Below, one piece after another: positions 7,039-54,139 of a stretch of DNA of 64,000 bases. The notes beneath the pieces are model-generated. The model saw only the letters and a program-made list of their open reading frames with translations, had not been told where the DNA came from and searched no databases. Location: the NCBI RefSeq assembly GCF_963921235.1, contig NC_086108.1, positions 53,818,001 through 53,882,000 on the forward strand. The letters are read 5' to 3'. Each line of letters opens with the position of its first letter. Position 1 is the stretch's first letter. The translations under genes were made by a program, and so were the position numbers. This DNA is from Mobula hypostoma (lineage: Eukaryota).

Positions 7039-7155
7039 GCTCGCCATCTGCTTTCTCAGGTGGGTGTAATTGATCCCATATCCATTCTTCAACAGAGAAA
7101 CAGATTTTATCTGATGAGCTTTCTAATATCCCTCTGCCAATATTGTCATGGTACA

Positions 7156-7215
7156 ACACACATCAAAGTTGCTGGTGAACGCAGCAGGCCAGGCAGCATC
7201 TCCTGTTGTTGTTGT
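7156..7215 (-). mobile_element. 60-bp Penelope-like pLTR fragment with 13-bp TSD
   Basis: acacacatcaaagttgctggtgaacgcagcaggccaggcagcatct is flanked by ttgtcatggtaca at 7143-7155 and 7216-7228. Confidence 0.75.
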
Positions 7216-9099
7216 TTGTCATGGTACACATTGTTTGGTCTGATTTTGCAAGAATTGGTTGCTGTGTTTCCAAGATTAGAACTATAGCTGCACCTCTAAT
7301 GTAAAGCACATCAGCATATCCTGAGGTTTTGTTGGGCACCATATGAATCGGGATCATTATTTTCTTGCAAGTGCTACTTGTTGCTGATACAGCAGCTGTC
7401 CTGCAATATTAGAAGATTCTTCATCACAAGTAGATGTACTGAGCACTTCCTACCAATGAGTCCTCTGAGAAACTAGGCAGGTATGAGAAGTTGGGCCAGC
7501 TAGTGACACAAAATAACAGCATGTATCTGCCAGTCTATGTGAATCTGAATATCCATATGCAACCTTCTTTCACTGGTAAACTCAAAATGAATGCCACAAG
7601 ATTTGTTTGCTGGTGAACCATAGTCGCAATTTTCATAGCCTGCCGGATGTAATTAATTCATCCCCTGAGGCACTTTCATTGTTTTAGCATTCTCATTGCC
7701 TGCTTCACTTGACCAACCAGTTTGTGTTCTGTAACAGTTTATTTAATGTGCTTTTGGCACAAAATCTATTTTCCTCATGAACAAGTAAGACAGCACGAGA
7801 ACTCAATCCATAGGAAAATAACTGAAATTGCTAATTTTGAGTCACCTTCTCTGCCAATATTGCCACATCTGCAGCAAGTTTTACTAAGTTATTTACCGAG
7901 AATTGCAAGGAAGGCTAATACTGCAAGATATTCATCTTAAATACTTTCTGGTAGGAATCATAATCAATCAACCAAAGTTGTTGTTCTTCCACGAGCAAAA
8001 TTTAGACCAGAGGTTGAAGTGGAACTTTCTTGGCTGCATGGCTCGGTACTGCACTAATTAGTGCAATTAGAAAGCAAGCCATCAGAAGAGTTTTCCTTTT
8101 GATATTTTGGCAATGTACTGTGATTCAGTTTGTGATTGGTTTGGAGTGCATGGCACGAGGTTTTGAACATATCATTTTTGATTGTTTCACACCATTTGTA
8201 CAAATATGATAATAATCTATTGTACATTTTCTTTTCATTCTTGAACTTGTTCCCCATTTCTTTTGACAAGGATCTGACCTCCACTTGGCAAAACTTCATT
8301 GTGGGTTAAAAGGCCTGTACTGTGCTCTATGTTCTAAAACTCCATCCCCTTTCTCCCTCCAGTACTGAATGGACTGTTTTTTTTTCCCTCTAGTGAATCT
8401 TTGTGTAATATCTTACTCTCTGTATTTACAAGTTCTTCCCATTCCTTTACTCCTCTATCATGGATATATGCAAATAAAATGCTACTTGAGAGAACCCAAC
8501 ACTGCTGCTCTGCAGAGTTCCAAAGAGTGATATGCTATTTGTCTGAAAAACCTGAAAATTATCCAAAGAGGTTTTCCCTGGGGTCCCAGGAGGCACTGGT
8601 ATTGAGTGCTCAGCTTATCCATCACAAGCCTGCCCATACATTTTTCAGACACTAGATATGATTTGGTGGCAAAAATTGAAAGCATAAATTATATCCCTGT
8701 GCATACATTGTGCCAGATAAAGCCACTGTTGTGGAAATCTCTCAAGGACTATAGTACACTAGCCAATTGTGCTTTTGCTAACCCAGGGAGACGTCGTCAA
8801 TTATAGTACTTCAATTGGCACAGGCTGAACATTTAATCTTCCTGATCTTTCAGTCTCAGAGACGAAAAGATTAACTCTGAGGTATTAAGGAGAGCCCGAC
8901 CATCCTCAGGTTGAAATGGAATTCAGTGAAACCATTTACAGATGAGATCATACAGCTGCCTTCCAAAGAGAAAATGCTAAACATACTGAAGCAGCTCAAG
9001 AAAGAGATAACTTATTTTTGCATTTGAGCTCAAACGATAAGGTGCTTCCTGTCTATTTCAATAAGATATAGAAAAAACTCTTCACTACTAATTGAGACA

Positions 9100-9262
9100 C
9101 CAGACTGCAGTTGCTGGAAATCTGGAGGAACTCAGCAGGTCAGGAAGCATCTGTGGAGGGAAATAGACACTTGGTGTTTCAGATTTGGACCCTTCATCAA
9201 GCTGTCTATTTCCCTCCATAACTGCTGCCTGACCCATTGAATTCCTACAGATTTTTGTTTGT
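9100..9262. mobile_element. older palindromic Penelope-like pLTR insertion
   Basis: ggaactcagcaggtcaggaagcatctgtggagggaaatagaca is inverted against tgtctatttccctccataactgctgcctgacc, and the centre is gacccttcatca. Confidence 0.65.
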
Positions 9263-9339
9263 TCACTGTACTAGTTAGTATTAGTATTTACTATTAGCAT
9301 TTATGATTCAAGATTTAGCTAATAATGAGGATTGTGGGT

Positions 9340-9680: not shown

Positions 9681-10720
9681 CTTATCTCAAACCAAATACA
9701 ATTCTATCTAATACCATGACATGCAGAAATATTCTATTTTTAGAGTAAAAGTGTCTTATTTAACATTTCACTTTTCACCCCTTTAGAGTGGTTTGTTCCA
9801 TCGATATAGTCCTCTCAAGTGATATTTTGGTAGATACACCTTTTTCAGAGATTTCATGAACTGTCAGCACACTTGGAATCCACTCCGGCTGTGATTCCTC
9901 TGACATATTGCTAAATGTTTTATGTAAACTATCTGCAGATTCAAAAACTAAACTATTTCTTTCATCTCTTTGAGATCAAGTGTGAAATTTCATCTTCCCT
10001 GATAGACCAACAATGAACAGTTAGGTCATAAACACTGGTCTCTGCTCAATTCATTGATCTCAGCAGCATTGGTGATAAGGATTTAAAACTTCCCTTAGAA
10101 TTCAATAGTTTTGATTTTTAACAGAAAATGTGTAATCTTGATAGGCAAGAAGTGCATGGGGTAAAGAAAAATGATTTTTCTTCTCCTGGTAGTGGCCACA
10201 TAAGGATCATGTGACTAGGAGAGGGTGGGGAAAAAATACAAAACCAGCATTGGACCTGAGCTTTTTCTCAAGGAGTTGGTTGGATTAAACTCAGAAGACT
10301 AAAGACTACTATTAAAGTCAGTTTGTTTTTCTGACCACTTATTTTCTCTCATCCTCCTTAAAAGGCAGTGACTTGTGATGATGCTCAAGTAGGAATTTAG
10401 AAGAATGTTAAATTTGAAATGTTTGAAATGAATCTAATTATATCAGCATATATTCAATCAACTCCACATGAGAATAGCATTGTGTTTACCCCTTTGGAGA
10501 AACAGTGATAAACAGTGTTTCAAATGGAAGCAGGATAGGTACAAAAGGACAAAAATCACATGTGGAACACTGGAATAACTGTGTTACTGGATTTGTTAAC
10601 GTAATTCACCAAGGAGAGTCAGTTTTTGGGGTGTATCATGGTGCATAAGGCAAGAACAAGTTTATAGAATCTTCAGAAGATTGAGTGCTGAATTGAAGTT
10701 TACGTCAAGTATAGATAATA

Positions 10721-10885
10721 ACAAGAGAAAAATCTGCAGACAGTAGAAATCCAAGCAACACATACAAAATGCTGGAGGAACTCAGCAGGCCAGCCAGTAT
10801 CGATGGAAAAGAGTAAACAGTTGACATTTTGGGCCGAGACCCTTCATCAGGACCGGGAAAAAAGATGAGTCAGAGTAAGAAAATG
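10721..10885 (-). mobile_element. Penelope-like pLTR fragment with mutated hammerhead (GAAA to AAAA)
   Basis: The minus strand reads ggtcCTGATGAagggtctcggcccAAAAtgtcaactg followed by the shared pLTR 3' end. Confidence 0.7.
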
Positions 10886-16630: not shown

Positions 16631-16639
16631 GCCCTGGAG

Positions 16640-17795
16640 ATGTATCCATCTTCCGGAGGACTGGAAAATTGCAACTGTCACTCCACACTTGAAGGGAAGG
16701 AGGCAGAAGGAAGGAAATCTTAGGCTAGTTAACCTGACTTTAGTGGTTGAGAAAATGTAAGAGTCACTTGTTGAGGATGAGGCTTTTGGGGTACTTGGAA
16801 GCACATGATGAAATAGGTTAGAATTAGGACAGTTTCCTCAAGAGGAAATCTTGCCTGACAAATCTGATGGAATTCTTTGAAGAAAGAACAGGCAGGATAG
16901 ACAAAGGAGAGTCTGTGGATGTTGTTTATTTGGGTTTTCAGAACACTTTTGAAAAGGTGCCACACGTGAGGCTGATTAACAAGATAAGAGCAAGGGTATT
17001 ACAGGAAAGATACTAGCATGGATAGAAGATTGGCTGACTGGTAGGAGGTCAAGAGTCGGAATAAAGGGAGCCTTTTTATTTTGGCTGCCAGCGACTAATG
17101 GTGGGTCATGAGTCAGTGTTAGGACCACTTCTTTTCATGTTATATGTTAATAATTTGGATGAAGGAATTGATGGTTTTGTGGCCAAGTTTGCAGGCAATA
17201 CAAAGACAGATGGAGGGACAGGTAGTGTTGAGGAAACAGTGTCTGCGGAAGGACTTAAATTTGGGGAATGGGCAAAGAAGTGGCAGATGGAATATAGTGT
17301 ACGCAAGTGCATGGTCATGCACTTTGGTAAAAGGAATAAAGATGTGGATTATTTTCTAAATTGAGAGAAAATTTAAAACTCAGGGGTACAAAGGAAAGGG
17401 ACTTAAGAATCCCTGTGCAGGTTTCCCTAAAGATTAACTTGTGGGTTGGGTTGGTGGTAAGGAAGGCAAATGCAATGTTATCATTCATTTCAAGAGAATG
17501 AGAATACAATGCAAGGATGTAATGTTGAGGCATTATAAGGCATTGGTCAGGCTGTATTTGGAGCATCGTGAGCAGTTTTTGGCTCCTTATCTAAAAAAAA
17601 TATGTGCTGCCATTGGACAGGTCCAGAGAGGTTCACAAGAATGATCCCAGGAATGAAAAGGTCAACATGTGGATAAGTCTAGGAGCAGTGGATACAGCCA
17701 ATAGAGGGAAGTCCACTTAGATCAGAGATGAGAATGAATTTCTTTAGCCAGAGGGTGGTGAATCTGTGGAATTATTTGCCATGGATGGCTGTGGA
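16640..17795 (+). mobile_element. decayed CR1 LINE RT region
   Basis: PEDWKIATVTP, RLVNLT, SVLGPLLFMLYVNNLDEGIDGFVAKFAGNTK and YKALVRLYLE are spread across broken frames. Confidence 0.85.
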
Positions 17796-20934: not shown

Positions 20935-21815
20935 AGGAGGAGGAGGAGAAGATGGCGATGCGACGCAGTGCGCGCGGCCACTCCGGTGATGTCTGTTATC
21001 TGTCAAGTAGGATGCTGTGCACAATTCTGATTTGATGGAGACAGACGTGAGAGAGCACGGAGGAACATCTGGAGAAACTTCTGAAATGCCCGCTTCGCTG
21101 CCGCTGCTACTGTGTGGACTGGAATCTCCGGAGCAGAAGGGTCCGAATCCTCGGCTTTGCTTGTTTCGGTAACTGGGGCAGGGTCGAAGGCGCTTGGCAG
21201 AGGATGGCGCTCGGGAGGCTGTATCGGACGGCTGGTCGGAGGCTCAAAGTTTTCAGACGGACTCAGAGTCGGCTATAGTTGGGTGCTTCCAATGCATCGG
21301 CAGTTGTTGGTGCCTGGAGGTTTATGGCAGGGAGAGTTTCTCCCTTTTGCCGCCTGCTATCTGAGACTATCGGGAGTTGATCAGGACTTTGAGATTTTTT
21401 TTTACCGTGCCCATGGTCTGCTCTTTATCAAATTATGGTATTGCTTTGCACTGTTGTAACTATATGTTATAATTATGTGGTTTTGTCAGTGTTAGTCTTT
21501 GGTTAACCAACACACATCAAAGTTGCTGGTGAACGCAGCATCTCTAAGAAGAGGTACAGTCGACGTTTCAGCCTGAAACGTCGACTGTACCTCTTCCGAG
21601 AGATGCTGCCTGGCCTGCTGCATTCACCAGCAACTTTGATGTGTGTTGCTTGAATTTCCAGCATCTGCAGAATTCCTAGCATCTGCAGAATTCCTGTGTT
21701 AGTCTTTGGTTTGTCCTTTTTTTGTGATATCACTCTGGAGGAACATTGTATCATTTCTTAATGCATGCATTTCTAAATGACAATAAACGAGGACTGAGTG
21801 TTCTCATAATCTATA
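20935..21815 (+). mobile_element. CpG-rich non-coding retroposon, probably a non-autonomous LINE derivative (5'UTR joined to 3'UTR)
   Basis: It starts with gaagatggcg, keeps many CpGs and has no RT-like ORF. It ends aaatgacaataaa...taatct, like the LINE tail at 36938-36970. Confidence 0.55.
21505..21695. mobile_element. palindromic Penelope-like pLTR insertion with 16-bp TSD
   Basis: Near-perfect hairpin centred on gtacagtcgacgtttcag-c-ctgaaacgtcgactgtac. The TSD gtgttagtctttggtt lies at 21489-21504 and 21696-21711, and there is an 18-bp tandem duplication agcatctgcagaattcct. Confidence 0.85.
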
Positions 21816-24149
21816 ATTTAAAAAAAATTTTCTCGTGCTGCAGGCAGTTCAGAGCAGCCTAATAAAACAAATTTTGCATTTATCTTTCTCCATTCTGTAC
21901 ATTCTGTTGGTTACTGTATAATGTCTAAATGGATTTTTTTCTGTTGTCTCTTAGGTTCTCTGTGTCACTAATTTATTTCTTTGTTCTCAGTATCATTACC
22001 TGCATGAATAGCCTTCTGTGTTGGATGATTTACATAGGAGTAGGACACCTTTACCTCAGGCATCAGAAACGGTCCCGTATAATACACAATTGCCAAAGGG
22101 AATACCCAATCTAACCCCCCCCTCACAAAGATTTGGTAACACGCTGTGATACTGGTTGAGAACCAACTGCAAAGTTCCCAGTTTGATACCTACTATGTAG
22201 AAAGTTAAACTTATCTCAGATGAAATAACAACGTACAGTATTTAGACTTGGCATATCAAGGAAAAATCAAGTGAGATTCCTTCTTGATTGTCATCCAGTA
22301 ATCCTTACTGAAATTGTGCACATGTGGAAGTGAGGCAAGGATAGGGGAGTGAGTATTTAACTGCAGTATTCCTATGTTTGCACAGCTTGTTGTGGATTAT
22401 GTCAGGATTGGTTGAGATGCTGGTAATCTTGGCATTCTGTGTGGAACCATGCACCCTGTGTGTGGTGGCAGAAAAATGTACTGATCCATCCAACGCTCAG
22501 TAATCCTTAAAGAGAACTCATCAAGTCACATTCCAAATCACACAATCTTAAACACAAGGCAAACAAAAAAGAATGAAAAATATTATTTCTGAAAATTACA
22601 TCGTAATTCATTTCCCTCTGAAAATAACATGAATTTCGGATGATGCATTCACTTTGTCTAATGTTAATAAACGCAGACATAATAATTTTGACTTTGTTTC
22701 TCTGCCAGCCATGTACACTTTGAGAGGGAAACAGCAGAATCAATATAGTACATTGAATTAAATTTATGAATTTAACACTTGGGTTCCCCTTAGTCTGATT
22801 CTTGGGTTTGCCTTGCTTTTGGCAGCCAGAGTATCCTCCTGTACCCACGGGGCCCTCATTAATAAATGCAAGTCAGCTTAAATGACAGAGTTATTACTCG
22901 ACTACTATTTTGGTCACTGCCCATAGTGCTCTTCGTATCCTGTTCTCAACCTCAACCATTGCAACAGATTGTGACATGGTCATTTCCAATTATATTTAAA
23001 AGCATTAGCAACTTGCTCTCAGGCAAACCACCCAATGTTTGCTTTTTCACTAATTAGGCAATTTCTAAGTGTTTGCAGTTGCAGTGAAAGTTCTGAACTC
23101 TTCAAAATCTTCTGGCATCATACTTGTTTCTTGTAAGAGTGCCGCTTAAAAGGAGGGGTAATCAAAACAAAGTGCATCTAGCTAGAAGAACAAACAGGGA
23201 CTCAATAAGCAGAGAGTGTGCAGCTGGAGATTTTTCTTGGGAACCAGTGAAGCTTGCACAGTGCAGCACATGAAAAGACCCTTCAACCCCTGATTTATGT
23301 GCTGAACGTGATGCCAAATTAAACTAGGTCTCTTCTGCCTTCACGTAATTGATATTCCCGCCCCACCATCCACTCCCTGCATATTTTTGTACCTATCTAA
23401 AAGACTCTTATACATGACTATTCTATCTGATTCCACCATTACCCCTGGTAGTCCAGTCCAAGCATCCTCCTTATCTCTGCATTAAAAAAACACAGAAAAT
23501 CCTCGGCAGATCAAGCAGCAAATTTGAAAAACAAAACAGAGTTAACATTGCAGGTCTGAAATCCATTGTTGGAATGGAGACAAAGAGAGAAAACAAGTTG
23601 ATATTCTATTGAGGGATGGTGGGTGTGAGTGGAGTATGTATCTTTCTGAAATTCCCTCTAGCTTGGCCGTTTCTCTCCCATTCTCCCTGCAACATAGAAC
23701 AAACTTGGTTCTTCACTTACCAAGTTCTGACAAAGCATCTTTGGCCGGAAATGTTAACTCTACAAGGTGAAAATCCACCCTGGTGTTTTGGGCATAGGGG
23801 CTAATCTGAGTGACTCCAACAATTATTTTCTCTTCTGTCGAACTCAACAGTAATAATTGCTGAAGAAGGTAATTTTCTGAAAATCCATCATCACTCAGTT
23901 TTGCACTTCAGCAGACAGTGATAGCAGAGTAATCTCATCAGTTTGACTTGGTGAGCCACTATCATTGGATTCAATCTGATTTGAGAATAAAATTGGCTAT
24001 TTATCATGTTACAGTATTTCTCTGTACTCCAATTAAATGCAAACTCAAGCAGGCAATCCAATAAGCTGCAAATCCCAGGGCAATTTGTAAGTGTAACAGA
24101 TTTTTTTCTCTAATGCTGCTTTGTAATTTCACTGGATTGATTGATTTAT

Positions 24150-24430: not shown

Positions 24431-24434
24431 TGGT

Positions 24435-24742
24435 GAATGGAAGCATCCTTGGAAAAGAGTAAACAGTCGGATGTTTTGGGCCAGGACCCTTCATAACGAC
24501 TTGGAAGATCTGAAACATTGACTGTTTACTCTTTTCCATAGAAGCTCCCTGGCCGGTTGAGTTCCTCCAGCATTTTGTATGCGTGTTACATTGGATTTCC
24601 AGCATCTGCAGATTTCCACAAACAAGAGAAAATCTGCAGATGCTGGAAATCTAAGCAACGCACACATAATGCTGAAGGAAGTCAGCAGGCTAGACAGCAT
24701 CTATGGAAAAGAGTATAGTCGATGTTTCAGGCCAAAACCCTT
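24435..24742. mobile_element. two Penelope-like pLTR fragments joined tail to tail
   Basis: ...gatttccagcatctgcagattt / aaatctgcagatgctggaaatc... form an inverted pair. The left unit has its own internal hairpin around gacccttcat. Confidence 0.7.
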
Positions 24743-25729
24743 GTTTTACAAAGCATTTCTGTTTTTCCTGTTCACCCTGGCTAATTAATATGAGAATTGG
24801 TCTTTCTAGAAATGAGCTGTGGATTGAAATTTGGTCTGGATAGGAACATAATCCCCAAATAGTGATGAGTACCTTCATTAATTAAAGTGTAATATCACAT
24901 TGGTGTATATTTACAAACCTTTGGACATTAGTCTTGGTCAAGACCTTCTCATCACCGAAATGGGGAATGTAAAGATAGGAATAAAGAATGTCAAAATTGC
25001 TCTTCAAATATATTATGGATATTTTAATTTTTCTTCATTTAAGCTATCTTCTATTCATCAAGTGAAACCTCATGTTTAGCTTTCACTAGGTTCCACAGCA
25101 ACCAGTTGCTGGCAGTAAGTGGTGTCTCCTGAGACCACTGATCTCCTTAGAGATTGTAGTTCAGCTGGAAATGGTACCATATTTCCTCTTTTCAAAGTGC
25201 TGTGCTATTAATTTCTGAATGAGTTGAGAACAATGGTCTAACTCTCAAATCCTGATCCACACCTCAGCAGCAGCCAAGTAGTTCATGAGACCAGCATGAG
25301 TAAATATGCTTTCAAGCCTCTCTCCTTTAATCTCTTGTTTAAAAAATAATCTCTGCTTGCCCAGCTGATAGCCCAGTTAAGACTATGGGCTTCATTTAGC
25401 TTCTGGAAGTCAGTGCAAGTGGCCTGGTCATGTAACTGAAGCAGGAAAAAAAGAAGCCGGTTTTGTAAACAGATTTTCTCAACTAAATCCGGCAGAAATT
25501 CAGTCAGAGTCAGTTGCTTTGGTGTTAGTTTCACCATAGAGAACACAACAAAAGCAATATCATTTGTATTGTATGATGTTTTTAAATATTAAAGATTTTC
25601 TGGTGCAAATAGAAGCATTGACAGATAAAATGGAATTCTTGTTTTCAGATCCAAAAGGAAATTAAAAAAATGTAAAACTTTGTGTGCTCAGCCACTTCAG
25701 GCTCTTGTGATTATTTCCAACACATTTTT

Positions 25730-34668: not shown

Positions 34669-36365
34669 ATCTTTCAAGAAAACATTCTAATGTTCTGCAC
34701 ATTGATTCAAAACAAACACAGAAGAAGATTGAGATTCAGATTCATTTATTTATCACATGTCCAGTGAAATACATCCTTTGCATTAACAACCAGCTATAAG
34801 AGACGTGGTCTTTTTGACTACAATTATCTGATGCCATTACACAGTGATGGGTAATCTTGCCAGTTTTGCTCTCCTTGTGTGAGAATGGGGAGAACTCTGA
34901 AACCGACCAGTACTAATAAGATTGAAAATGTTCTATGGTAGAGGTACACACAGTACTAGTGAATAGTCATAATTATAAATCAATTCCCTGGCCCCCTCAC
35001 TTGAGACGTCTCCATGTCTATGTTACAGAGTGGGTGTAACATTGGTAAAGCCCTATTTAGCCCAGGCAATATTAATATATTGCCATGCTAACTGTCCTAT
35101 CACTGATTGTTTGGTGAACAGGAATGACTGATTTTGCGCTGTATATATTAGATCGCTGATGTCTGCCAGCCTGACTGCCCTGTTAGCATTAATGCTTAGC
35201 TTTAAACATAGCTACGATGGGCTTGATTTCCTCCCGTACTAATGGTGCGGCACGAGTTAGGGTGCGTACCTAACCCAGAACTTCATGCGTAGGGTCATTG
35301 GTCAAGTTGATCATGGAGGCTACCACATTTAAGCCTTTGTACTTCAACTTCCTCACATCAATCAGACATTTTCTTTGTGAACCATGCGACAGTAACTAAT
35401 TTTTACACATCGCAGATCAAAAGATCTCCTGCTGCAGAGTAGGGACCAACCCCAGAGTCTTAATGTCCTTTTCAAAATATTGTCTTGGCTCTTTACAGTT
35501 CGTGGGCTCATTTTGTACATAAAATTGGTGCTGCTTTTCATACATTTCAATCGAATTTTCTTGGATATAAAGCCATTTGGGAAAACTGAGGTTATAAAAG
35601 ATTCATAGTGTATTTTTCCTTTCCCCTTAATACCCTTTATGGATTAAATCTTTATTGGTGCTTAGCAACTGTACTGGGAAAACTGTTGTACTGGGAATAC
35701 TGATATTTACTTGAAGCATATAAGGGTGACGCCCATGGAATTGTCCCCCCGCCTGAGTAGGTATCTCCATGAGAGAAAATAGCTGGAGGAAAATGTGACT
35801 GAACTAAGTAACTGGAGTAACTGAAATGTAGAAGCTATTTTTTTAATTTAAAAAGTTGTAACAGCCCAAAGTCCCTGCAGAATCTGAGATAAGTTTAAAG
35901 TGAAGCAAGCACTGCATATGGCTGCCAACACAAACCCAGCAGAGAATTAGCTTATGTTCTGAATAAAGTTGCTGTGGAAAATGTAAAGCATTTCTTTGTG
36001 GTATAAAACAAAGAATGGTTGTTCTGGGGTTAATTCTCAACAGAAAGTAACAGGGGGTGGTTGGAGGGAGGGAATTGAGAGCTGAATTTCTAAATGATTT
36101 TAATTAAAATTACCATTGTGCACTATAAAGATTCTCTGTCTGCAGTGAGGGGATCTCAGATTCATCTTAATAAATAAATATCATTAATTAGTTAGATTCA
36201 GTATATTGGCAAATTAATTCTCTGATGTTGGAACAGTGGCAAAGGAGTTTTTTAATCAGGTGTTATATGTTGGATGAAAAATTTTTAAAAACTGCAGATG
36301 ATGGAAATTTTAAACCAAAAACAGAAAATGCTGTAAGTATTCAGCAGGTCCAGTTGCTTCTAAGG

Positions 36366-36990
36366 CTGGGGTATTCAACCTGGGGTCCACAGCCTCCTTG
36401 GTTAATGGTAGGGGTCCATGGCATAAATATATGATACTGACGGACTTTTACCGCTGTACCATTGAGAGCATACTCACCAACTGCATCTCAGTGTGGTATG
36501 GCAATTTTCCCGTATTGGACTGCAAAGCACTCCAGCGTGTGGTGAAAACTGCCCAGCGGATTATCAGCACCCAATTGCCCACCATTGAGAACATCCACTA
36601 TAAACGCTGCCTGGGCAGGGCGAAAAGCATTATCAGGGATGCATCTCACCCTAACCATGGACTTTTTACTCTCCTCCCATCCGGTAGGTGCTACAGGAGC
36701 CTCCGCTCCCGCACAAGTAGACACAGGAACAGCTTCTTCCCAGAGGCTGTGACACTGCTGAACCTCTCATCACAGCATGAAGCAGTATTGCATCCGTATT
36801 GTACTGTCTCAGTACTTCTATATTTGTGTGCTGTAGCACATTTCTTATTCGCAGTTATTTCGTAAATAACACTATTCTCTGCATTTCTGGTCAGATGCTA
36901 AATGTATTTCATTGGCTTTGTATCTGTACTCGGCACAATGACAATAAAGTTGAATCTAATTGAATCTAATAAAAAAGGTTGGGAAGCCTA
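36366..36990. mobile_element. hAT MITE (inverted relative to 44331-44408), split by a LINE
   Basis: ctggggtattcaacctggggtccacag...catggcataaa | LINE | aaaaaaggttgggaagcc. Confidence 0.7.
36428..36970 (+). mobile_element. young 5'-truncated Rex1/Babar-type LINE
   Basis: Open reading ILTDFYRCTIESILTNCISVWYG...LQRVVKTAQRII...HPNHGLFTLLPSGRCYRS...NSFFPEAVTLLN, with tail acaataaagttgaatctaattgaatctaat. Confidence 0.88.
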
Positions 36991-37354
36991 GGGTCAACAT
37001 TGCAGGTTGTTGACCCTTCATCAGAAACAGAAATATTGGCTCTTATTCTCTTTCTGCAAATATGGTCTAATCTGCTGAGCATTCCCAGCATTTTCTGTTT
37101 TTGTATTACTTGGTAAATCTTGACGAAGGGTTTGTGGCTCTCACCAACGAAAGCAGTGCACCAAGAGGTCGAAAGAAAGATCTAAACGCAGCCAGTATAA
37201 TATTGTCAGCTTTGACATAGTCACGTCTGATTCAGAAGTTTGTGTTTAGACCCAATTTTAGAAACCTGGGCATGCAAAGCATGCGAGTCTTCGGTGTCAT
37301 GTTGAAGGAATGATGTGTGGTTGAAGGCACATTTTAGATGAGGTGTTAAACCAC

Positions 37355-37472: not shown

Positions 37473-37547
37473 TTGTCCTCCGGCTGCAAGTGAAGGATCA
37501 AATGGCATTCTGAGAATGAGCATGGAAAGTGCCACAAACAGCAATAA

Positions 37548-37703
37548 AATAACATGCACAACACGCTGGAGGACCTCAGCAGGTCGGGCAGCATCCGTGG
37601 AAACAAACAGTCAACATTTCCACGGATGCAGCACGACCTGCTGAGTTCCTCCTGCGTGTTGTGCGTGTTGCTTTGACCCCAGCATCTGCAGGGTATTTTG
37701 TGT
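37548..37703. mobile_element. palindromic Penelope-like pLTR insertion with 9-bp TSD
   Basis: The arms gcacaacacgctggaggacctcagcaggtcgggcagcatccgtggaaa and tttccacggatgcagcacgacctgctgagttcctcctgcgtgttgtgc are inverted. The TSD cagcaataa lies at 37539-37547 and 37704-37712. Confidence 0.8.
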
Positions 37704-39054
37704 CAGCAATAAGATACATTTCTAGGGAATTTGTTATTCTGAAGGATAGATATTAGCCAGTAATCCTGTATTGCAGATATTTTGTGTACTATATTTGCCA
37801 TTACCCAAATGTCAGTGGTGGAATTGCTGTCTCCTCAAGTATCAAAGCAGAGCACAATAGCAATATAGAGCATTTTACTGGTGACCACGACATTTCCATC
37901 TGTTGAAACTCAACAGACTCGTGATGCAGTTTCACACAGCAGTTCATTTGTATTTTTCTGAGCCTGTGTAAAGGACGATGAATTGGACCTTGAACAACTG
38001 TATTTCTCAGCTACTCCTTGAGCAGTTTTAAAAATATAATTAAAGCGCACAATTTCTTGAAGAGACTGGGCGATTACAGAAGTTGCCTAATACAGTTTTA
38101 GTAATACCTTATCAGAGTCATTAAAATTTAGACTGTATTAGTGGGGTGGGGGTGTGGGGCTCATATTTAGAAGGTTTCAAAATATTAATTGACTTCCATG
38201 AGGCTGCCAGTTCTTTTGTATATCCTGTACCTTCAGACAGCCTTGATGATTCATTACCATATAATGCTAGTAGCTCCCACGTTGAACTACCAGTGGTTTG
38301 TCTCATCTTGAAAGAGAGTAACAAAGTGCTTGGAATTTACAAAGTAATCAGCAGATAATGCTGCCAAGAGAAGTACAAGCTGCAGCACTTAAAGGATGGC
38401 TCAATGGGTGTTAGCAGTTAAATGTGTTTTATGAGAAATACTAAAAAGAAATTGACTTTGAGAGTTTAGGTCTACAACATACCAAATTGTCCGAGGAGAG
38501 AAGATTTGTAAACAAGAGCAAGCTAAGACAGGAGAGAACTGTTTCAATCCCAGTGAATCGCTTTCCAAAGTTTTCAAGTTTACGTGATTATATTTCAAAC
38601 AAGATTTTTGCTTTTTAAGAGAAGGAGTTATTGTTTCACTATCATTTTCTTCATGTTTCCTACCTCACCCGAAGCACCACCTAACGATAGGGTACCATTT
38701 TGGAAGCTTGAACCCATGACCTCATAGGTCAGAGGTGAAAATGCTACCACTGAGCCCAGTTGAGTAAGGCCATTTGACTTCACTGATGCTTTTGACTCCT
38801 TTCTCTAATCAACTGAATGATGCAAGTTCTCATATTGTCTACTGGTTTAGTTGAGGTCAGCTAATTCAACATAGACAGTAGAACTAGGAAAAAATGTTTG
38901 CTGTCTGCGCTATGCCCTGTGATGAAATAATCCATTAACCCATCATTGCAGTACTTATTTTTTTAAATTACTGAATGCATTTTACATTTCTTTCTTATTA
39001 ACTGAATTGTTTTACTCACTTGCAGCTAAAGACTTTTTTAAATCTGCTTTTCAG

Positions 39055-39342: not shown

Positions 39343-40567
39343 GTAAGATCTCCATTAAAATGTTACGTAGGTTATGGGGATATGAAACAAGGAATTCTAG
39401 GTTCCAAAACCAATTTCATATTGGTGCGAAAAGCCAAAATTCAAGCCAATGCTTTGGGCCCAATCACAATGGGGTACAGCCTTATGTACTTCGATGTGAC
39501 ACATTCATTTGTAGATTATTTTGATTTGAGGCTCATGGGGGAGGGCATTTTGAAAAGATAGAGTTTCCTGCACATCTACACGGTTACATTATATCATAGA
39601 TGTCAGGTATGGGTGCACGTGTAAGCTCTTTGATGGGTTTGCAGCAAATGGAATTATGTAGAATTTATGATTAGAAAGAGATCATATGTGTGAACACCAT
39701 AAAATTTATAGCATTCTAGTCATGTCCCTGGTGCTTTTGGTGCCTCCTCCTGCCACCTCATTATGGAACTGGGCAAATTCCAAACACCTACATGTGAAGA
39801 TATTCTTTCTGCTCCTCAGTTCAGTACATGGAGCAGTATCAGGAAGTCAGGGGGCTTTCATATATCCATGAACCACTACTGGGATGACGTCCACCAGCAG
39901 CTGAAGATGAAGATGAAGTACTTCTCATTTATGATCTACAGGCACAACTCCCGTCAGCACCAACGAGCATTAATAACTTGGTGAAGGGTGGGATTTATGG
40001 AGGAAGAGTTGGAGAGTGGTACCAGAAAAACTTCGGAACAGGGACTTATCCACAAAGCTAACAAAAAAAAGGCATAGCTGGTGCCCATGGCAACTAACTT
40101 TGATTTGTAGAAAGTGAGAGGAGTCAAAAGAGAAGTCCGCTAGGAGAATGAGTCCCGATACAGGGTTTTGACCAAAACAATGACGGTTTCTTTCCTCCCA
40201 CGTATCCTGCAACACCCTTCCATTCCTCCAGTACATTGGGGATTGCTCTAGCATTCGTACATGCCAGCTCTTAGAAAAGTCCAAATCAAGGACAAAGACT
40301 TGAAGGGCACAAAGTTCTGTTTGCAACCTGCACCAGGTCAGATGAGCACAAACCAGCACCATTTTGGTGCTCATTTTCCAGTGAAATCCAATTTATTTTC
40401 TCTTGTCCTTTGCTGCCTTGTTGGCAATGGTATTGGTCATCATGAGAAAAAGTGACCTATGGAGTGTGAGATGATAGTAGCCTCCTCTCTGGATTAGACC
40501 ATAAGACCATCAAACATAGGAGCATTGAGTCTGCTGCACCTTTCCATCCTCATTTGCACTATACCAG

Positions 40568-40652
40568 ATACACACAAACTACTGGAGAAATTCAACAGGT
40601 CAGGCAGCATCTGTGGAGGGAAATGAACAGTTGACATTTTGGATCAAAACCT
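40568..40652 (-). mobile_element. decayed Penelope-like pLTR fragment
   Basis: actggagaaattcaacaggtcaggcagcatctgtggagggaaatgaacagttgacattttggatcaaaacct. Confidence 0.6.
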
Positions 40653-40995
40653 GTCATACTTCCAGAGATATATGCACACCTGATCTGATTTACACTTCAG
40701 ATGTGCATCAGATTACACACAACGTAATCTGATGCCCATCTAATTATATCAGTCTCCATGGAACACCCCATTTGGAACATAACACGGAAATTAAACTGGT
40801 GTGGATGATTGTTGATCATACACAGAATTGTATAATTATTCAGTATAACCTGCCTGCATTAATCCTCCATATATCTTTTAAATCTGGTCTAGGATAAATA
40901 TCATACTTCTTACCCTTTATTAACCTACCCGCACTAAACTATGGTACTGTTTTCACCACCTCCCTTGGTCACCGCCCTTACCTTCTATGCAAGTG

Positions 40996-44089: not shown

Positions 44090-44495
44090 TGGATAGGCAT
44101 GAGGCCTCACAGCTGCTGAAACCTGAGTTTGATCCTGAGCTCGGATACTGTCAGGGAAGCGTGTTCTCCTTGTTACTATGTGGATTTTGTCTGGATGCTC
44201 TAGTTTCCACCAGTATTACAAAAGCAAGCTGTGAGGCTAATTGGCATTTGTAAAATATCTCTTAGCATAGGTTAATGGCAAAGAGAATCAGAGGAGGGGA
44301 ACTGGACATGTGCAAGAGAATATGTTATAGCAGGGATTTCCAACCTTTTTATGTCTTGTACCAATGCCATGAAGCAAGGAGTCTGTGGACCCCAGGTTGG
44401 GACCCCTGTGTTAAAGGAAATGGACATCATATAGGACTGATGTCCATTTCCTGGGACTGCTGTGCATGGAACTGGTCTCCTTCTATTCCATAACA
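44090..44495 (+). mobile_element. SINE hosting a MITE
   Basis: gcctcacagctg..acctgagtttgatcctgagctcgg...ggatgctctagtttcc...ctaattggcatttgtaaaat. Confidence 0.55.
44331..44408. mobile_element. 78-bp hAT MITE with 8-bp Buster-type TSD
   Basis: TIRs are cagggatttccaacct and aggttgggacccctg. The flanks tgttatag (44323-30) and tgttaaag (44409-16) fit nnnTAnnn. Confidence 0.85.
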
Positions 44496-47650: not shown

Positions 47651-48599
47651 ATAATATGTTGGTACATGAACACAAATTTCACCTTTCTCTCCTTCCCTAC
47701 ACCCAATCCCATCCCTCCAACCCAATCCCACGATTTTGGGTGGAACTATCAGTAAGCAAGTTATAACCTAGCAAAATGCAGTCTATGCTCATAATTTGTA
47801 TCCTCAAATATTGTAGTAACACTCTTCTCCATTGTTCAAATGTGTGTTGCTTTGCCCTCAAATTACCTGTCTGTTATCAAGAGCTGCATGAGCCAGAAGG
47901 TCCTCCAGGTGAATGTCAGAAAACTTAAGACCTTCTTCTTGTGCTGCTGTCAGCACTTCTGAATCCCTGGCTTCATTCCCTTACCCTCTCTTAATTAAGC
48001 TGAGTCAGGAAAGACATGACCTTTCAGCATTGTGCTCAGCCACAAGCTCATATTCTCTTACCTTTCTGTTAACAAAACTGCTTCTGGGAGTTTTGTCAAT
48101 CTTCCCAGCATCTGCCAGTAGATCTTTGTTTATGTTGCCAAAGCCTACAGTATGTACACGTGTCAGTGCAACCACATTACATCTAATCTCTCCGCCTCAA
48201 CTTCATACAACTTTTACTTGTTCATGTCTTCATTTACTCCATCCTTCATTTTCATGTTCAGCCTTCTCCAACCTCTTTTCACTCCAGATGTCAAAGCATC
48301 TCAATTTTATAATTGAAATGCCTTGTACTATTACCTTCCTACGTTATGCCTCATTGCTTCTAATACTGAACTGTATCTTACTCTGCATACCCTCCACTGC
48401 ACAAGAAATGGCTGTTTGTTGAACAGGTACATTTTTGATTTCTGAAACTATTCATTCCTTCTGCATCGTTATCTCTTTCCTTGCTTCAATAATCTAAAAG
48501 ACATCTTTTGAATTTGTTTTTTCTTTGCTTTCTATTCCTAACCTTTCTGGTGGTTCTCAGTTTCTCTTATTTGGTATGTGCTATATTGCTTTCCTCAGC

Positions 48600-49188
48600 A
48601 CTTTCGCTCCACCTGCAACAAGGGATTTCCTGGTAGCCAACCATTTTAATTCCACTTCACACCCCTAATTTTCTGGCCTCTTCTACTGCTACAACTGAGG
48701 CCTCTCTCAGATTGGAGAAGCAATGCCTCATATTCTGTCTGGGTAGCCTCCAACCTGATGGTATGAACATTGATTTCTATATCACCCGGTCATTTATTCC
48801 CCCCCTTCTTTTTTTCCATTCCCCATTCTGACTCCCCTTTTTATCCCTTCTCTTCACCTGCTTATCACGTCCCTCCTCTTTCCCTTTCTCCCAGTGTCCA
48901 CTCTCTTCTTCTATCATATTCCTTCTTCAGCCCTTTACCTTTTCAAATGATCACATCCCAGCTTCTCACTTCAATCTCCCTCCCCGCCCACATACCTTGT
49001 CCCTCATCTGGCTTCACCTAACACCTTCCAGCTTGTGCTCCTTCCCCACATCCGCTTTCTTATCTAATGTTCATACCCTTCCTTTCCAGCCCTGATGAAG
49101 GATCACAGCCCAAAATGTAAAATGTCTATTCCTCTCCATTTTGTGTGTGTTACCCTGGAGTTCCAACAGCTGCAGAATCTCTTGTGGT
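48600..49188 (+). mobile_element. decayed Penelope-like element 3' end (GIY-YIG C-terminus plus pLTR)
   Basis: VANHFNSTSH...EASLRLEKQCLIFCLGSLQPDGMNIDF is followed by a pyrimidine tract, a degenerate hammerhead cagccCTGATGAaggatcacagcccAAAAtgt and the shared 3' end. Confidence 0.75.
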
Positions 49189-49974
49189 TATATATTGTTT
49201 TCCTTTCCTTCTTTCTTCACTATGTAAATAAAAATTGCAGTTGTAAATCAGGTGTCCCTCAGATTTGTGCTGAAGAAATGGCTGAAACATTTACAACCAT
49301 GTTCAGCCAGAAATGCCAAGCTGATCAGTTGATTATTTCTTATATGATACCTATCATTACAAAGGCCAGTCTCCAGTTTATTCATTCCATGAGAAATTAA
49401 GAAGCAGCTGAGAGCACTGGATACCAAGAAGGTGATGGAACCAGACAATATAAGACCATGAGATTATAGGAGATAGGAGTAGAATTGGGCCAATTGGTCC
49501 ATTGAGTCTGCTCCGCCATTTCATCATGGCTGATCCATTTTCCCTCTCAACCCCATTCTTTGCCTTGTCCCTGTAACTTTCATGCCCTGACTAGTCAACC
49601 TCTGCCTTAAAATACACAAGTGCCTAGCCTCCACAGCCATCTGTGGCAAAGAATTCCACAGATTCACCACCATCTGGCTGAAGAAATTCTTCCACATCTC
49701 CATTTTAAATGGGCATCCCTCTATTCTGAGACTGTGCCCTTTGGTCCTGGACTCCCCCACTATAGGAAACATCCTCTCCACATCCACTCTATCTAGACCT
49801 TTCAAAATTCGGTATGTTTCAATGCGAACCCCGCCCCCCCCCCCCCCATTCGTCCAGTGAGTCCAGGCCCAGAGACATCAAACACTCCTCATACAATAAT
49901 CCTTTCATTCCTGGAATCATTCTCATGAACCTCCTCTGAACCCTCTCCAGTGTCAGCACATCCTTTCTCACTTT

Positions 49975-50068
49975 CTCAACAACACACAAAAATGTTGGAG
50001 GAACTCAGCAGGTAAGACATCATCTGTGGAAATAAATTAACAGTCGACATTTTGGACCAAGACCCTTT
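49975..50068 (-). mobile_element. Penelope-like pLTR fragment nested in a CR1
   Basis: caacacacaaaaatgttggaggaactcagcagg...cagtcgacattttggaccaagaccctt. The host LINE resumes on both sides at cctttct. Confidence 0.7.
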
Positions 50069-51893
50069 CTTAGATAAAGGTCCTAAAACCGCTCACAATA
50101 CTCCAAATGAAGCCTCACCAGTGCCTTATGAAACCTCAACATTACATCTTTGCTTTTATATTCTAGTCCTCTCAAAATGAATGCTAACATTGCATTTGTA
50201 TTCCTCACCAGCAACTCAACCTGCAAGTTAACCATGAGGACTTTCAAGTCCCTTTACACTTTGGATTTTTGAATTTTCAGTTTAATCAGAAAATAGTCTA
50301 TGTATTTGTTCCTTCTACCAAAGTTCATGACCATACACTTCCTTACACTATATTCTATATGCCATTTCTTTGGCCATTCTCCTAATCTGTCTTAAATCCT
50401 TCTGCAGACTCTTGGCTTCCTCAGCACTATATACCACTCTACCTCTCTTAATATCGCCCACAAATGCAGAATAACACTCATCACTGGCAACCATCCAGAA
50501 AAGGCTCTGTTTATTCCCACTCTTTGTCTCCTTCCAATCAGCCAATCCTCTGTCCATGCTAATACCTTTCCTGTAATACCATGGACTCTTGTTAAGCAGC
50601 CTCAGGTGTGGCACCTTGTCAAAAGCCTTCTGTAAATCTCACAACACCAACTGATTCTTATTTGTCTATCCTGCCTGTTATTTCTTCAATGAATTCCAAC
50701 AGATTTCTCAGGCAAGATTTTCCTTTGAGGAATCCATGCTGACTGTGCCCTATTTTATCATGTGCATCCAAGTAACCCGAAACCTCATCTTTAATAATGG
50801 ACTCCCAATATCTTCCCAGCCACTGAGGTCAGGTTAACTGGCCTATAATTTTCTTTCTTCTGCCTCCTTCCCTTCTTGGAGTGATATTTGCAATTTTTCT
50901 GTCCTCCAGAACCATGCCAGAATCTAGTGATTTTTGAAAGTTTATTAGTGAGTCCACAGTCTCCCCAGCGACCTCCTTCAGGACCCTGAGATGCAGTCTA
51001 CCTGGCCCAGGTGACTTATCCACCTTCAGACCTCTGAGCTTACCAAGCACCTTCTCCCTAGTAATAGCAAATGCACTCTCTCCTGCCCCCTGACACTCTC
51101 AAACTTCTGGCATACTGCTAATATCTTCCACAGTGAAGATTGATGCAAAATACTTATTCAGTTTGCCCGCCATTTCCTTGCTCCACATTGCTAACTCTCC
51201 AGTTTGCAATGTCCAATATCTACCCTCACCTCTCTGTTACTCTTTAAATATCTGAAAAAACATTTGGTATCCTCTCTGATATTATTCAATAGCTTTCCTT
51301 CATATTTCATCTTTTCCCACCTTATGGCTTTTTAGTTGCCTTGTTGGTTTTTAAAAGCTTCCCAGTCCTCTAACTTTCCACTAAGTTTTGCTATATTTTT
51401 GCCCTCTTTTTGCTTTTATGCTATCTTTGACTTCCCTTGTCAGCCATGATTCAACACTTGTTCTTTGGGAAGTATTTATCCTACGCCTTCTGACTTTCTC
51501 CCAGAAACTCCAGCCATTGCTGTTCTGCTGTCATCCTTGCTAGTGACCACTTCCAATCAATTTCGGCCAGCTCCTCTTTCATGTTTCTAAAATTCCCTTT
51601 AATCCACTGTAATACTGATACATCTGACTTTAACTTCTCCCTCTCAAATTGCAGGGGGAATGCTTCATAGGGGTTCTTTTACCTCAAGCTCCCAAATCAA
51701 ATCCAGTTCATTAGACAACACTCAATCAAGAATAGCCTTTTCTGGAGTGGACTCAACCACAAGCTGATCTAAAAAGCCATCTTGTAGACCTTTTGCAAAT
51801 TTTCTCTCTCTTGGGATCCAGCACCAAACCTGATTTTCCCAATCTATCTGCATATTGAAGACCTCTATGACTATCCTAACATTGCGCTTTTGA

Positions 51894-52116
51894 ATTTAAA
51901 AACACAAACACAAGGAAATCTGCAGATGCTGGAAATTCAAGCAACACACACAAAATGCTGGTGGAACGCAGCAGGCCAGGCAGCATCTATAGGAAGAAGT
52001 ACAGTTGACGTTTCGGGCCGAGTCCTGATGAAGGGTCTTGGCCCGAAACGTCGACTGTACCTCTTCCTATAGATGCTGCCTGGCCTGCTGCGTTCACCAG
52101 CATTTTGTGTGTGTTG
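51894..52116. mobile_element. young palindromic Penelope-like pLTR insertion with 13-bp TSD
   Basis: Inverted arms of about 80 bp. The TSD attgcgcttttga lies at 51881-51893 and 52117-52129, and the insertion interrupts the CR1 APE region. Confidence 0.9.
52021..52056 (+). ncRNA. minimal type I hammerhead ribozyme motif, core intact
   Basis: AGUC (stem I) - CUGAUGA - A - GGGU/CUUG/GCCC (stem II) - GAAA - CG - UC^ - GACU (stem I'). Predicted cleavage is after C52052 (GUC), and stem III is the palindromic ACGU. Confidence 0.8.
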
Positions 52117-53568
52117 ATTGCGCTTTTGACATGTGTTTTCCATCTCCCATTGTAATTTGTAGCCTACATCCTGCCTACTGTTTGGTGGTCTGTATGTAAC
52201 TCCTATCAGGGTCTTTTTACCCTTACAGTTTCTAAACTCTACCCACAAAGATTCTACATCTGATCCTATGTCACCTCTTTCTCAGGATTTCATTTCATTC
52301 TTCCAGCCCCTCTGCCTAACTGCCTGTCCTTTTGATATAATGTGTATCCTTGGATGTTAAGCTCCATATAATGATCTTCATTCAGCCATGACTCAGTGAT
52401 GCCCACAACATCATACCTGCGAATCTATCACTGTGCCACAAGATCATCTACCTTATTCCATATGCTACATGCATTCAACACTTTCAGTCCTGTATTTGTC
52501 ACCCTTTTTGACTTTGTTCCCCTATTACATTGCAACTCCTCACAGCTAAGGACTTGAACACAAGATCTACCTGCACTTCTAGCCAAGCTGTTTCAGGAGT
52601 GGGAAAATGTTACTTTCAATGTAAACATGCAGGAAAATGGTCAAATGTGTCATGTTTTCAAAGAGCAGGACAAATCCTATCCGTTTAATTACTGCCCAGC
52701 AATCCATTTCCATTCATCAGCATAGTGAAGGAAGGTGTTATTGGCAAAGCAGTCAAGTATTGTTTACTCACCAATTATCTGCTCACTGATACCATATTGG
52801 GGTTCACCTGAACCGCTCAGCTCTGGACCTTATTGAACCCTAGGTCCAAAGATGAACCAAAGAACTGGAATTCAGGTGCGAGGGGAGATTGACCGTCCTT
52901 GATAGAAAGGCAAGATTTGACTGAGTGTGACATCAAAGGCCCATGGTAAAACATGGTATCGGGGGAATGAACTGCAGCGCTTAGAATCATACTCACACAA
53001 AGGAAAATGGTGATTTTTGCTGTAAGAGGTCATCCAACAGTGCACTGAGACATCACTGCAAGAGTTCCTTCCAGCAGTGTCTTTGGCCTAACCATATTCA
53101 TCAATCTCCTTCTTTTCATTACAAAGGCAGGAGGAAGATATCTGGTAATTGTGCAGTGTTCAGTTCATTTGCAATCCTTCAGTAAATGAAGCAGTCTATC
53201 AGTGTATGCATTAAGACCCAGGCAATACACAAATATGGTCTGATAGGTGGCAGAGTACCAATTTCAAGAATCTTATAGCAAATAACAGCAGTGCCACTTG
53301 AGACTTTTTTTCAAATCTGGTAAATGTTACAATAACAACAGCCCCAGTCAGTTCCAGGTACACCAGGAGCTCTACTGCTCAGTAATATTTGCCCATGGTG
53401 CTTGTCTTATGTGGCTGTAAAAGATGAAATCCCACAGGCTGCCCAGTGATAGCCTCTGAACTTATCTTCATTTGACGTCCATACACAATTTCCAATGAAT
53501 TGTGCTGGATATGAAAGGCTTGCTGATATTCACCTCTCTTAACTCCACACATCAAGTATCACTTTGGC

Positions 53569-54139
53569 AAACACGAGAAAATCTGCAGATGCTGGAATTT
53601 CAAGCAACACACATAAAAGTTGCTGGTGAACGCAGCAGGCCAGGCAGCATCTCTAGGAAGAGGTACAGTCGACGTTTCGGGCCGAGACCTTTCGTCAGGA
53701 CTAACTGAAAGAAGAGCTAGTAAGAGATTTGAAAGGGGGAGGGGTAGGGGGAGATCCAAAATGATAGGAGAAGACAGGAGGGGGAGGGATGGAGCCAAGA
53801 GCTGGACAGGTGATAGGCAAAAGGGATATGAGAGGATCATGGGATGGGAGGCCTAGGGAACAAGATAAGGGGGGGGGAAGCCCAGAGGATGGGCAAGGGG
53901 TATAGTGAGAGGGAGAGAATGAGAGAGAAAAAGAATGTGTGTATATAAATAAATAAATAATGGATGGGGTACGAGGGGGAGGTGGGGCATTAACAGAAGT
54001 TTGAGAAGCCAGTGTTCATGCCATCAGGTTGGAGGCTACCCAGATGGAATATAAGGTGTTGTTCCTCCAACCTGAGTGTGGCTTCATCTTTACAGTAGAG
54101 GAGGCCATGGATAGACATATCAGAATGGGACGTGGAATT
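53569..54139 (-). mobile_element. young 5'-truncated Penelope-like element (GIY-YIG C-terminus 54139-53990 plus pLTR)
   Basis: The minus frame NSTSHSDMSIHGLLYCKDEATLRLEEQHLIFHLGSLQPDGMNTGFSNFC* is uninterrupted and is followed by a pyrimidine-rich tract, a hammerhead and the shared 3' end. Confidence 0.85.
53667..53702 (-). ncRNA. minimal type I hammerhead ribozyme motif
   Basis: The minus strand reads AGUC-CUGACGA-A-AGGU/CUCG/GCCC-GAAA-CG-UC^-GACU. The first stem II pair is an A-C mismatch. Confidence 0.72.

Follow-up and report, generated by a model that had tools for sequence, protein, structure and literature searches.

Very short head-to-head insertions of a putative Neptune-type Penelope-like element in the genome of a ray

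Penelope-like elements (PLEs) are known to leave an inverted, truncated copy next to the main copy, with a short tail on one side only (PMC8557442 and PMC3846280). In the rotifer element Pen2a_Av and its kin this tail measures 31 bp (30 to 40 bp in PLEs generally), target-site duplications (TSDs) vary from 8 to 10 bp, and some copies are joined by microhomology and have no TSD (PMC3846280). In Poseidon of Anolis (PAc), both target strands are cut and extended, two RT start sites flank the tail, and the start site is used without strand preference in vitro (PMC11167929). Minimal hammerheads of metazoan PLEs are mostly single motifs from truncated copies, with opposite-strand pairs also described 100 to 700 bp apart (PMC4209133), and non-LTR retrozymes form head-to-tail tandems of 150 to 450 bp with one ribozyme per unit (PMC7229834; bioRxiv 10.64898/2026.07.22.740005).

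Here, we analyze 12 related loci in a 64,000-nucleotide stretch of the ray Mobula hypostoma (contig NC_086108.1; hereafter the window). A truncated pLTR in inverted orientation, with 30 to 40 bp of tail on one side, is published PLE anatomy, and the ray element is that anatomy at its shortest. The ray loci share with Pen2a_Av and its kin, and with the scheme of PMC8557442, the head-to-head inverted 5′-truncated copy, a tail on one arm (35 to 40 nt here), TSDs of variable length (here up to 16 bp) and the occurrence of copies without a TSD. Unlike that group, they are mostly 60 to 225 bp long, keep both arms within the pLTR, occur about once per 5 kb and reside in a cartilaginous fish. They resemble Poseidon in the two putative RT starts bounding the tail, in both strands probably being cut and extended, and in a hammerhead motif immediately upstream of the tail; in contrast to Poseidon's lack of strand preference, 6 of 6 scorable two-armed loci in the ray pair a tailed with a tailless arm.

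As a reference we used 153 nt from the minus strand of 53568-53720, along which all “ref” positions are counted. All 12 loci align to it with local scores of 38.5 to 306, against a maximum of 30 in the reversed window, which bears out the “about a dozen related copies” of the first-pass annotation. Two long copies continue into the C terminus of a GIY-YIG endonuclease (tblastn E values of 2e-33 and 1e-10), again as had been noted from the sequence. All 12 loci are pLTR (3′ end) copies of a probable Neptune-type PLE, an abundant element whose hairpins represent dead insertions of very small size.

No full-length PLE copy is present in the window, and the order of RT followed by a C-terminal GIY-YIG domain is read from relatives, the window holding the C-terminal piece only. 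That 49-amino-acid piece (53993-54139) is 75 to 90% identical to ray proteins; on its own it matched no Pfam family. P0002, one of the related proteins, contains a YIDD motif, and its Pfam match to GIY-YIG (E 4.6e-4, 20.9 bits) falls just below the cut-off of 22.6. Endonuclease-bearing PLEs are defined by two cysteines between GIY and YIG, part of the CCHH motif (PMC8557442), and the alignment of relatives shows CxxCxxC between GIY-like and YIG-like words, with histidines downstream. In addition, all four long relatives aligned display C-X4-C-X2-C upstream of the GIY-YIG core, corresponding to the CX2-5CxxC linker between RT and endonuclease that is common to Neptune and Nematis and absent from Penelope and Poseidon. 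Between the first two, host range makes Neptune the more likely parent.

Seven of the loci are two-armed. The smallest (7143..7228) is a 60-bp insert between 13-bp TSDs (7143-7155 and 7216-7228), consisting of a tailless arm in inverted orientation (7156-7202, minus strand, ref 68 to 114/116) and a GTT-rich 13-nt stub (7203-7215) that is similar to the tail end and, from these 13 letters, may represent it. An old hairpin at 9098..9262 lacks a clean TSD and joins a tailed arm (9098-9201, minus), with an internal deletion of ~26 nt and a decayed hammerhead, to a tailless arm (9202-9262, plus). The 191-bp hairpin at 21489..21711 is bounded by 16-bp TSDs, the first 5 letters of which match the tail end; its tailless arm (21505-21571, minus) contains a 12-nt deletion and its tailed arm (21571-21695, plus) an 18-nt tandem duplication within the tail, and the arms start at ref 41 and ref 39, giving a nearly symmetric apex. 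The compound locus at 24438..24746 comprises an inverted arm (24438-24508, minus) cut at ~ref 78, a tailed arm (24506-24617, plus) and a second tailed arm (24617-24746, minus) lying tail to tail with the preceding one. At 36287..37102, a tailed minus-strand arm is divided into two pieces (36287-36367 and about 36992-37030, the latter with a decayed hammerhead) by ~620 bp of other sequence and is followed by a tailless arm (37026-37102, plus); we infer that these pieces form one element, an old split hairpin. The hairpin at 37539..37716 has a tailless arm (37552-37620, minus) from ref 43 and a tailed arm (37617-37703, plus) from about ref 61, overlapping by 4 nt at the junction. Finally, the 223-bp hairpin at 51881..52129, between 13-bp TSDs, has a tailed arm (51894-52022, minus) from ref 35 and a tailless arm (52021-52116, plus) from ref 19, with a junction overlap of 2 nt.

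The remaining five loci are single. They include a tailed arm of ~167 nt at 10718..10885 (minus) with one core change in its hammerhead and a weak TSD candidate (8 bp, one mismatch), a tailless arm of an old subfamily at 40566..40658 (minus; no clear TSD), and a tailless arm of ~100 bp at 49969..50070 (minus), nested in another repeat whose paralogous copy (17501-17670) does not contain the arm. The two long 5′-truncated copies measure 595 bp (48582..49204, plus), with a decayed GIY-YIG C terminus (48621-48777), a 3′ UTR, a decayed hammerhead and a tail, and 572 bp (53568..54139, minus), with the 49 C-terminal codons, a 3′ UTR, a hammerhead at 53667-53702, a tail and no TSD.

The four clean TSDs reported previously were all recovered: 13 bp at 7143/7216, 16 bp at 21489/21696, an exact 9 bp at 37539/37704 (13 bp if one mismatch is allowed), and 13 bp at 51881/52117, enclosing inserts of 60, 191, 152 to 156, and 223 bp, respectively, as expected of independent insertions. 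Using the same search boxes on 400 random pairs, repeats of at least 9 bp were found in 6 and of at least 13 bp in none. A fifth TSD of 14 bp with one mismatch (48582-48595 and 49191-49204) surrounds the copy at 48596-49190. At the seven remaining loci the exact flanking repeat never exceeds 7 bp (the length of the word common to both sides at 49969..50070), and no TSD above chance was detected at 9100, 10721, 24435, 36288, 40568 or 53569, nor around old pairs near 586 and 23487. The A+T content of the TSDs is 0.67, compared to 0.59 window-wide (n = 5 sites). The site orthologous to the 53569 copy is empty in a relative's contig (run X9), and at the 51881..52129 locus contig joints from 51859 to 52117 occur in all four contig runs.

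In each of the six scorable two-armed loci, one arm carries the tail and its partner stops short of it (0.5^6 = 0.016). At 21505, 37548 and 51894, where this asymmetry had originally been claimed, tailless arms end at ref 114 to 116 and tailed arms at about ref 150 to 156. The “fixed asymmetric design” of the first-pass annotation thus stands for the arm ends, which are constant, but not for the apex, which varies, and two arms are also found at 9100, 24435, 36288/37026 and 7156. All seven junctions differ from one another, in a comparison covering seven loci of differing ages in the window plus partial contig data. A hairpin that mobilizes itself is therefore refuted by the very test the annotation had set, in which unique apices would speak against it; a rare hairpin subfamily may exist elsewhere in the genome, the scored set being these seven loci of mixed age. 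Among the best-supported joints in the four contig runs (15 listed, at least 1993 more), no apex was held in common, and hairpin-type joints among those 15 came from a single contig per run or a single run. Loose contig ends before 52021 (465 in X1, 363 in X9) go on as T/C-rich, 3′-UTR-like sequence and not as the apex of 51894. Of the runs listed as containing the repeat, none is recorded as RNA; X17, presumed to be RNA, was left out of account as evidence of transcription.

The first-pass annotation had named a ribozyme-bearing family as one of two possible origins; the pLTR does contain a predicted minimal type I hammerhead motif at 52021..52056 (plus; strict descriptor match at 52025-52056), as in endonuclease-bearing PLEs. 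The motif would comprise a helix I of 4 bp, CUGAUGA, one extra A, a helix II of 4 bp, GAAA and a palindromic ACGU replacing helix III, with the cut predicted after 52052. It shares with metazoan PLE hammerheads the core, an additional base following position 9, the G10.1-C11.1 pair, a palindrome at 15.2-16.2 and a short helix I, whereas helix II has 7 to 8 bp in Schistosoma families (PMC4209133). The strict descriptor matched once in the whole window and never in 10 shuffles; the relaxed descriptor gave 8 matches (4 within family copies) against 4 to 10 in shuffles, so only the strict match exceeds chance. An Rfam search returned 15 matches, none at gathering score and none to a hammerhead (E up to 10), with only sub-threshold miRNA matches on the hairpins. 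In folding z-score (-1.06 to +0.82), the stretches spanning the ribozyme and the pLTR do not stand out, and the minimum-energy fold differs from the active hammerhead. The arms do not begin preferentially at the predicted cut: at most 1 of 19 (the 9100 tailless arm) starts within a few bases of it.

Our reading is that an autonomous Neptune-type PLE with an endonuclease left these loci behind as integration products that were dead on arrival, with the hairpins built anew at each site (probability roughly 0.85). That hairpins form de novo at each insertion is very strongly favored, and given this, synthesis from two primers is the somewhat preferred route. The GIY-YIG endonuclease would make a staggered cut, leaving TSDs of 9 to 16 bp or sometimes none; both target 3′ ends would prime RT on the element RNA, from the end of the 35- to 40-nt tail in one case and from its start in the other, and the two short cDNAs would be joined head to head through 1 to 4 nt of microhomology. 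One-sided events would yield single arms, and rare longer cDNAs the copies that reach the ORF. L1 twin priming likewise uses both target nicks as primers and produces, within a single TSD, a 5′ inversion joined by microhomology, with non-overlapping parts of one RNA being copied. The 7156 locus has the shape of such a product; the ray two-armed loci are otherwise unlike L1 in that their arms mostly copy the same 50 to 90 nt twice.

Self-priming or fold-back at a short inverted match, with endonuclease resolution then removing one tail, could also build a hairpin at each site, a model put forward for Penelope elements of rotifers, and we regard it as rather unlikely here. It fits the short overlaps at the junctions and the near-symmetric 21505 apex, explains the longer tailed arms at 9100 and 36288 equally well, and follows published views, in that self-priming was inferred from palindromic junctions (PMC3846280) and the tail was attributed to endonuclease resolution (PMC8557442). 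However, at 7156, 37548 and 51894 (3 of 6 scorable loci) the tailless arm extends further 5′ than its tailed partner and holds sequence absent from a tailed first strand, so it is not a simple fold-back copy, and a tail cannot be gained by copying a tailless first strand. The two parts at 7156 do not overlap at all, and fold-back works only if the tail can later be lost from either arm. What the window adds to the published anatomy is this longer tailless arm, with each nicked target strand probably priming on its own, at one of the two RT start sites already known, before a joining step.

Mobilization of the hairpin itself was considered in two forms. A MITE- or SINE-like hairpin, transcribed and moved in trans by the PLE enzyme, would be short, abundant, TSD-flanked and constant at its outer ends, as these loci are, and non-autonomous PLE derivatives are known in Chlamydomonas (PMC8557442); yet junction and insert length (60 to 223 bp) vary, the contig joints listed converge on no apex, and the long copies with an ORF end have the same young sequence as the short ones (93 to 96% to 53569), making this form highly improbable. 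The other, a non-LTR retrozyme whose ribozyme-cut monomers circularize and reinsert, we hold to be still more remote. The hammerhead motif, the PLE link and the long TSDs recall retrozymes, proposed to derive from PLE pLTRs (bioRxiv 10.64898/2026.07.22.740005), but the ray loci are head to head or single with variable 5′ ends, and most arm ends interrupt the motif. The arms lie on opposite strands, so that one transcript could not contain two same-sense ribozymes. As no head-to-tail unit of the repeat appears among the window's 14 tandem-repeat rows and none of its hairpins has two intact hammerheads, these loci fall outside the retrozyme definition. Of the two origins offered by the first-pass annotation, short products of the parent element thus fit, and a retrozyme-like, self-mobilizing family does not.

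More tentatively, with odds we place a little below even, the mini-hairpins may record the normal PLE reaction, in which a dimeric enzyme lets both strands prime, the start point being invariably the end of the tail for one strand and its beginning for the other. RT starting at the tail beside the transcript's 5′ pLTR would, over a distance of about 170 nt, exhaust its template or be halted by the ribozyme, and the shortness of most products would not reflect random 5′ truncation. The lengths of 17 of the 19 arms in the window are 47 to 167 nt and of two 572 to 595 nt, with none of intermediate length (post hoc comparison with a single exponential, p about 0.001). If this were true, some hundred thousand events per genome would allow ray assemblies to test the integration mechanism by counting. 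For the steps of PLE transposition that follow first-strand priming, strict asymmetry of the tail, arms of unequal length and microhomology at the junctions, surveyed across very many copies, could tell two-primer synthesis from fold-back. For repeat annotation, such hairpins risk being labelled MITEs, SINEs or microRNA precursors.

Literature searches for accounts of the family in cartilaginous fishes, or of twin priming in PLEs, gave either no papers or listings, one of them without any PLE paper by title; Repbase or Dfam may well contain the family. A pattern scan of viral contigs gave no matches. A 19-nt pattern retrieved 114 metagenome stretches, which we dropped as chance because the best score against the reference (51) barely exceeds that of the pattern itself and the four inspected were bacterial-looking or unrelated. 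Arm identity is about 89 to 97% for young arms, whatever their tail state, and 66 to 82% for old ones; this difference (91 to 97% on the young side) agrees with the “several waves” suggested earlier, as several subfamilies or ages. Each arm's nearest neighbor is its own partner at 9100 (82%) and 37548 (91%), where arms follow the subfamily of their locus, and in young copies partner arms are no nearer each other than arms of other loci. A profile search of the window recovered additional old copies beyond the 12 loci.

All 12 loci listed as related copies in the first-pass annotation align to a 153-nt reference from the 3' end (pLTR) of the Penelope-like element (PLE), taken in ORF sense from the minus strand of 53568-53720, with scores of 38.5 to 306 against a background of no more than 30 in the reversed window. 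The four target-site duplications (TSDs) reported there are exact, measuring 13, 16, 9, and 13 bp at the loci starting at 7156, 21505, 37548, and 51894, respectively, while the identical search on 400 random position pairs returned at least 9 bp in 6 and at least 13 bp in none. The 595-bp copy at 48596-49190 has a TSD as well, the fifth, of 14 bp with a single mismatch, and the search at the other 7 of the 12 loci gave none exceeding chance. In addition, a profile search of the window recovered a further partner arm (one pLTR copy) at 37026-37102, as well as features left out of scoring: a single plus-strand arm at 40153-40237 and two weak, very old head-to-head pairs, 586-682 (minus) with 818-862 (plus) (E values, 3e-4 and 5e-4) and 23487-23564 (minus) with 23729-23761 (plus) (0.03 and 0.7), whose arms are spaced 135 to 165 nt apart.

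The seven two-armed loci are all arranged head to head. As had been claimed for 21505, 37548, and 51894, only one arm carries the extra 3' tail: tailless arms stop at reference positions 114-116 and tailed arms at about 150-156, so that the tail measures 35 to 40 nt, and this pairing holds in all six scorable loci (24435 was omitted, its inverted arm being cut short). Tailless and tailed 5' starts, respectively, are reference 68 and a 13-nt stub at 7156, about 50 and 22 at 9100, 41 and 39 at 21505, about 43 and 18 at 36288-37102, 43 and 61 at 37548, and 19 and 35 at 51894; at 24435 the inverted arm starts at about 9 and the tailed arm at 38. The tailless arm extends further 5' in three of the six scorable loci and the tailed arm in the other three, at 21505 by 2 nt only. 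The 19 arms seem to fall into two length classes (17 of 47 to 167 nt, 2 of 572 to 595 nt, and none between), on a post hoc test with nonindependent arms; 5' ends are firm for two-armed and empty-site-bounded arms, and a fast-evolving UTR could conceal old copies of intermediate length.

The apices, or arm-arm junctions, differ at all seven two-armed loci, with overlaps of 1, 2, and 4 nt at clean junctions, which speaks against a self-mobilizing hairpin and for formation de novo at each insertion. Contigs of four runs weakly support this, with no shared apex among the 15 best-supported joints of a set that includes 1993 others and leaves some joints uncounted. The suggested retrozyme-like family is likewise not upheld: PMC7229834 and bioRxiv 10.64898/2026.07.22.740005 define retrozymes as head-to-tail repeats in which every unit contains a ribozyme, an arrangement absent from the window, and the two-armed loci differ from the units of PMC7229834 in being head to head.

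Both arm ends lie at the two TSD copies. For a Poseidon PLE, PMC11167929 shows cutting and extension of both target strands, two internal RT start sites, one at either end of the tail, and a reaction that does not require ribozyme cleavage. Were each target strand to prime its own cDNA, arm ends at the two TSD copies would be the expected outcome. Simple fold-back was rejected at 7156, 37548, and 51894, where the tailless arm holds sequence that the tailed strand lacks, since a fold-back copy cannot hold sequence absent from its template. A possible alternative to priming by both target strands is self-priming (PMC3846280), after which either of the tails would be lost. The short PLE hairpin insertions are real and well observed, and their kind is already known: according to PMC8557442, PMC3846280, and PMC8969392, an inverted truncated PLE copy with a one-sided 30- to 40-bp tail is typical. 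A literature comparison, with Repbase and Dfam outside it, found no paper describing this family in cartilaginous fish.

The proposed GIY-YIG parentage is confirmed by 49 codons in the copy at 53568-54139, for which 6 of 9 candidates gave matches, to proteins from Mobula hypostoma (90%) and from Hypanus sabinus (75 to 82%), making a ray the probable host. These relatives have a YIDD motif in the RT and cysteines inside a GIY-YIG domain, along with a C-X4-C-X2-C linker, and the parent is therefore a Neptune- or Nematis-type PLE by the definitions in PMC8557442; we putatively call it Neptune-type. Both long copies run from the endonuclease end through a T/C-rich 3' UTR of about 400 nt to the hammerhead (reference 19-54), a conserved stretch, and the tail. 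A decayed fragment resembling the PLE RT region (40000-40086, minus; tblastn E value of 0.001 with P0007) adjoins the old arm at 40153-40237 on the opposite strand.

At 52021-52056 we observe a predicted minimal type I hammerhead, in which palindromic ACGU replaces helix III; it is the sole match to a strict descriptor in the window, with none in 10 shuffles. Features listed for minimal hammerheads in PMC4209133, which also describes paired motifs on opposite strands 100 to 700 bp apart, are present.

Four of the 24 listed runs supplied contigs that were aligned to 51560-54300 at 87% likeness. One 627-nt contig of run X9, from another organism, spans 53113-53567, then one letter, then 54140-54297, and thus represents an empty site of the 53569 copy, whereas contigs of runs X1 and X5 enter the insertion; 53568-54139, inserted without a TSD, cleanly marks related rays by its presence or absence. 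The joint from 51859 to 52117 (7, 6, 4, and 1 contigs across four runs) fits host-repeat copies without the 51894 hairpin and defines its right border only, not the left. Loose contig ends before 52021 lead into sequence resembling the 3' UTR, with low agreement (0.39), rather than into the 51894 apex. Summed depth, which is not a copy number, reaches 3 to 9 million on pLTR bins versus about 16 to 37 on unique DNA, agreeing in order with the window's density of one locus per 5 kb; the ORF-end bin, at 4.4 million, indicates that the close relatives of the 53569 copy include many long ones. For 49975, a paralogous copy of the host repeat without the insert lies within the window. This LINE-like repeat forms two long inverted copies (16691-17795 and 49475-50875, 77 to 86% alike), with several more fragments across the window.

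The inverted arm at 24438 is probably cut by the abutting repeat at 24185-24434 (family D6; similar copies at 6863-7004, 29173-29237, and 44179-44276), which we take to have a tRNA-like SINE head. At the nearby tail-to-tail junction (24595-24640 and 24740-24755), the first tail ends about 10 nt early, and the nucleotides it lacks seem to come after the second arm, a pattern suggestive of one PLE copy having inserted into another's tail. About 620 bp of other sequence (36368-36990) divides an old hairpin; the ends of this stretch presumably resemble the terminal inverted repeats of a small DNA transposon, and inside it lies another repeat, which ends in a 10-bp tandem. Finally, an 83-nt near-perfect palindrome at 30682-30764, unrelated to the PLE repeat and with a subthreshold miRNA match on both strands, is possibly a small DNA-transposon relic.
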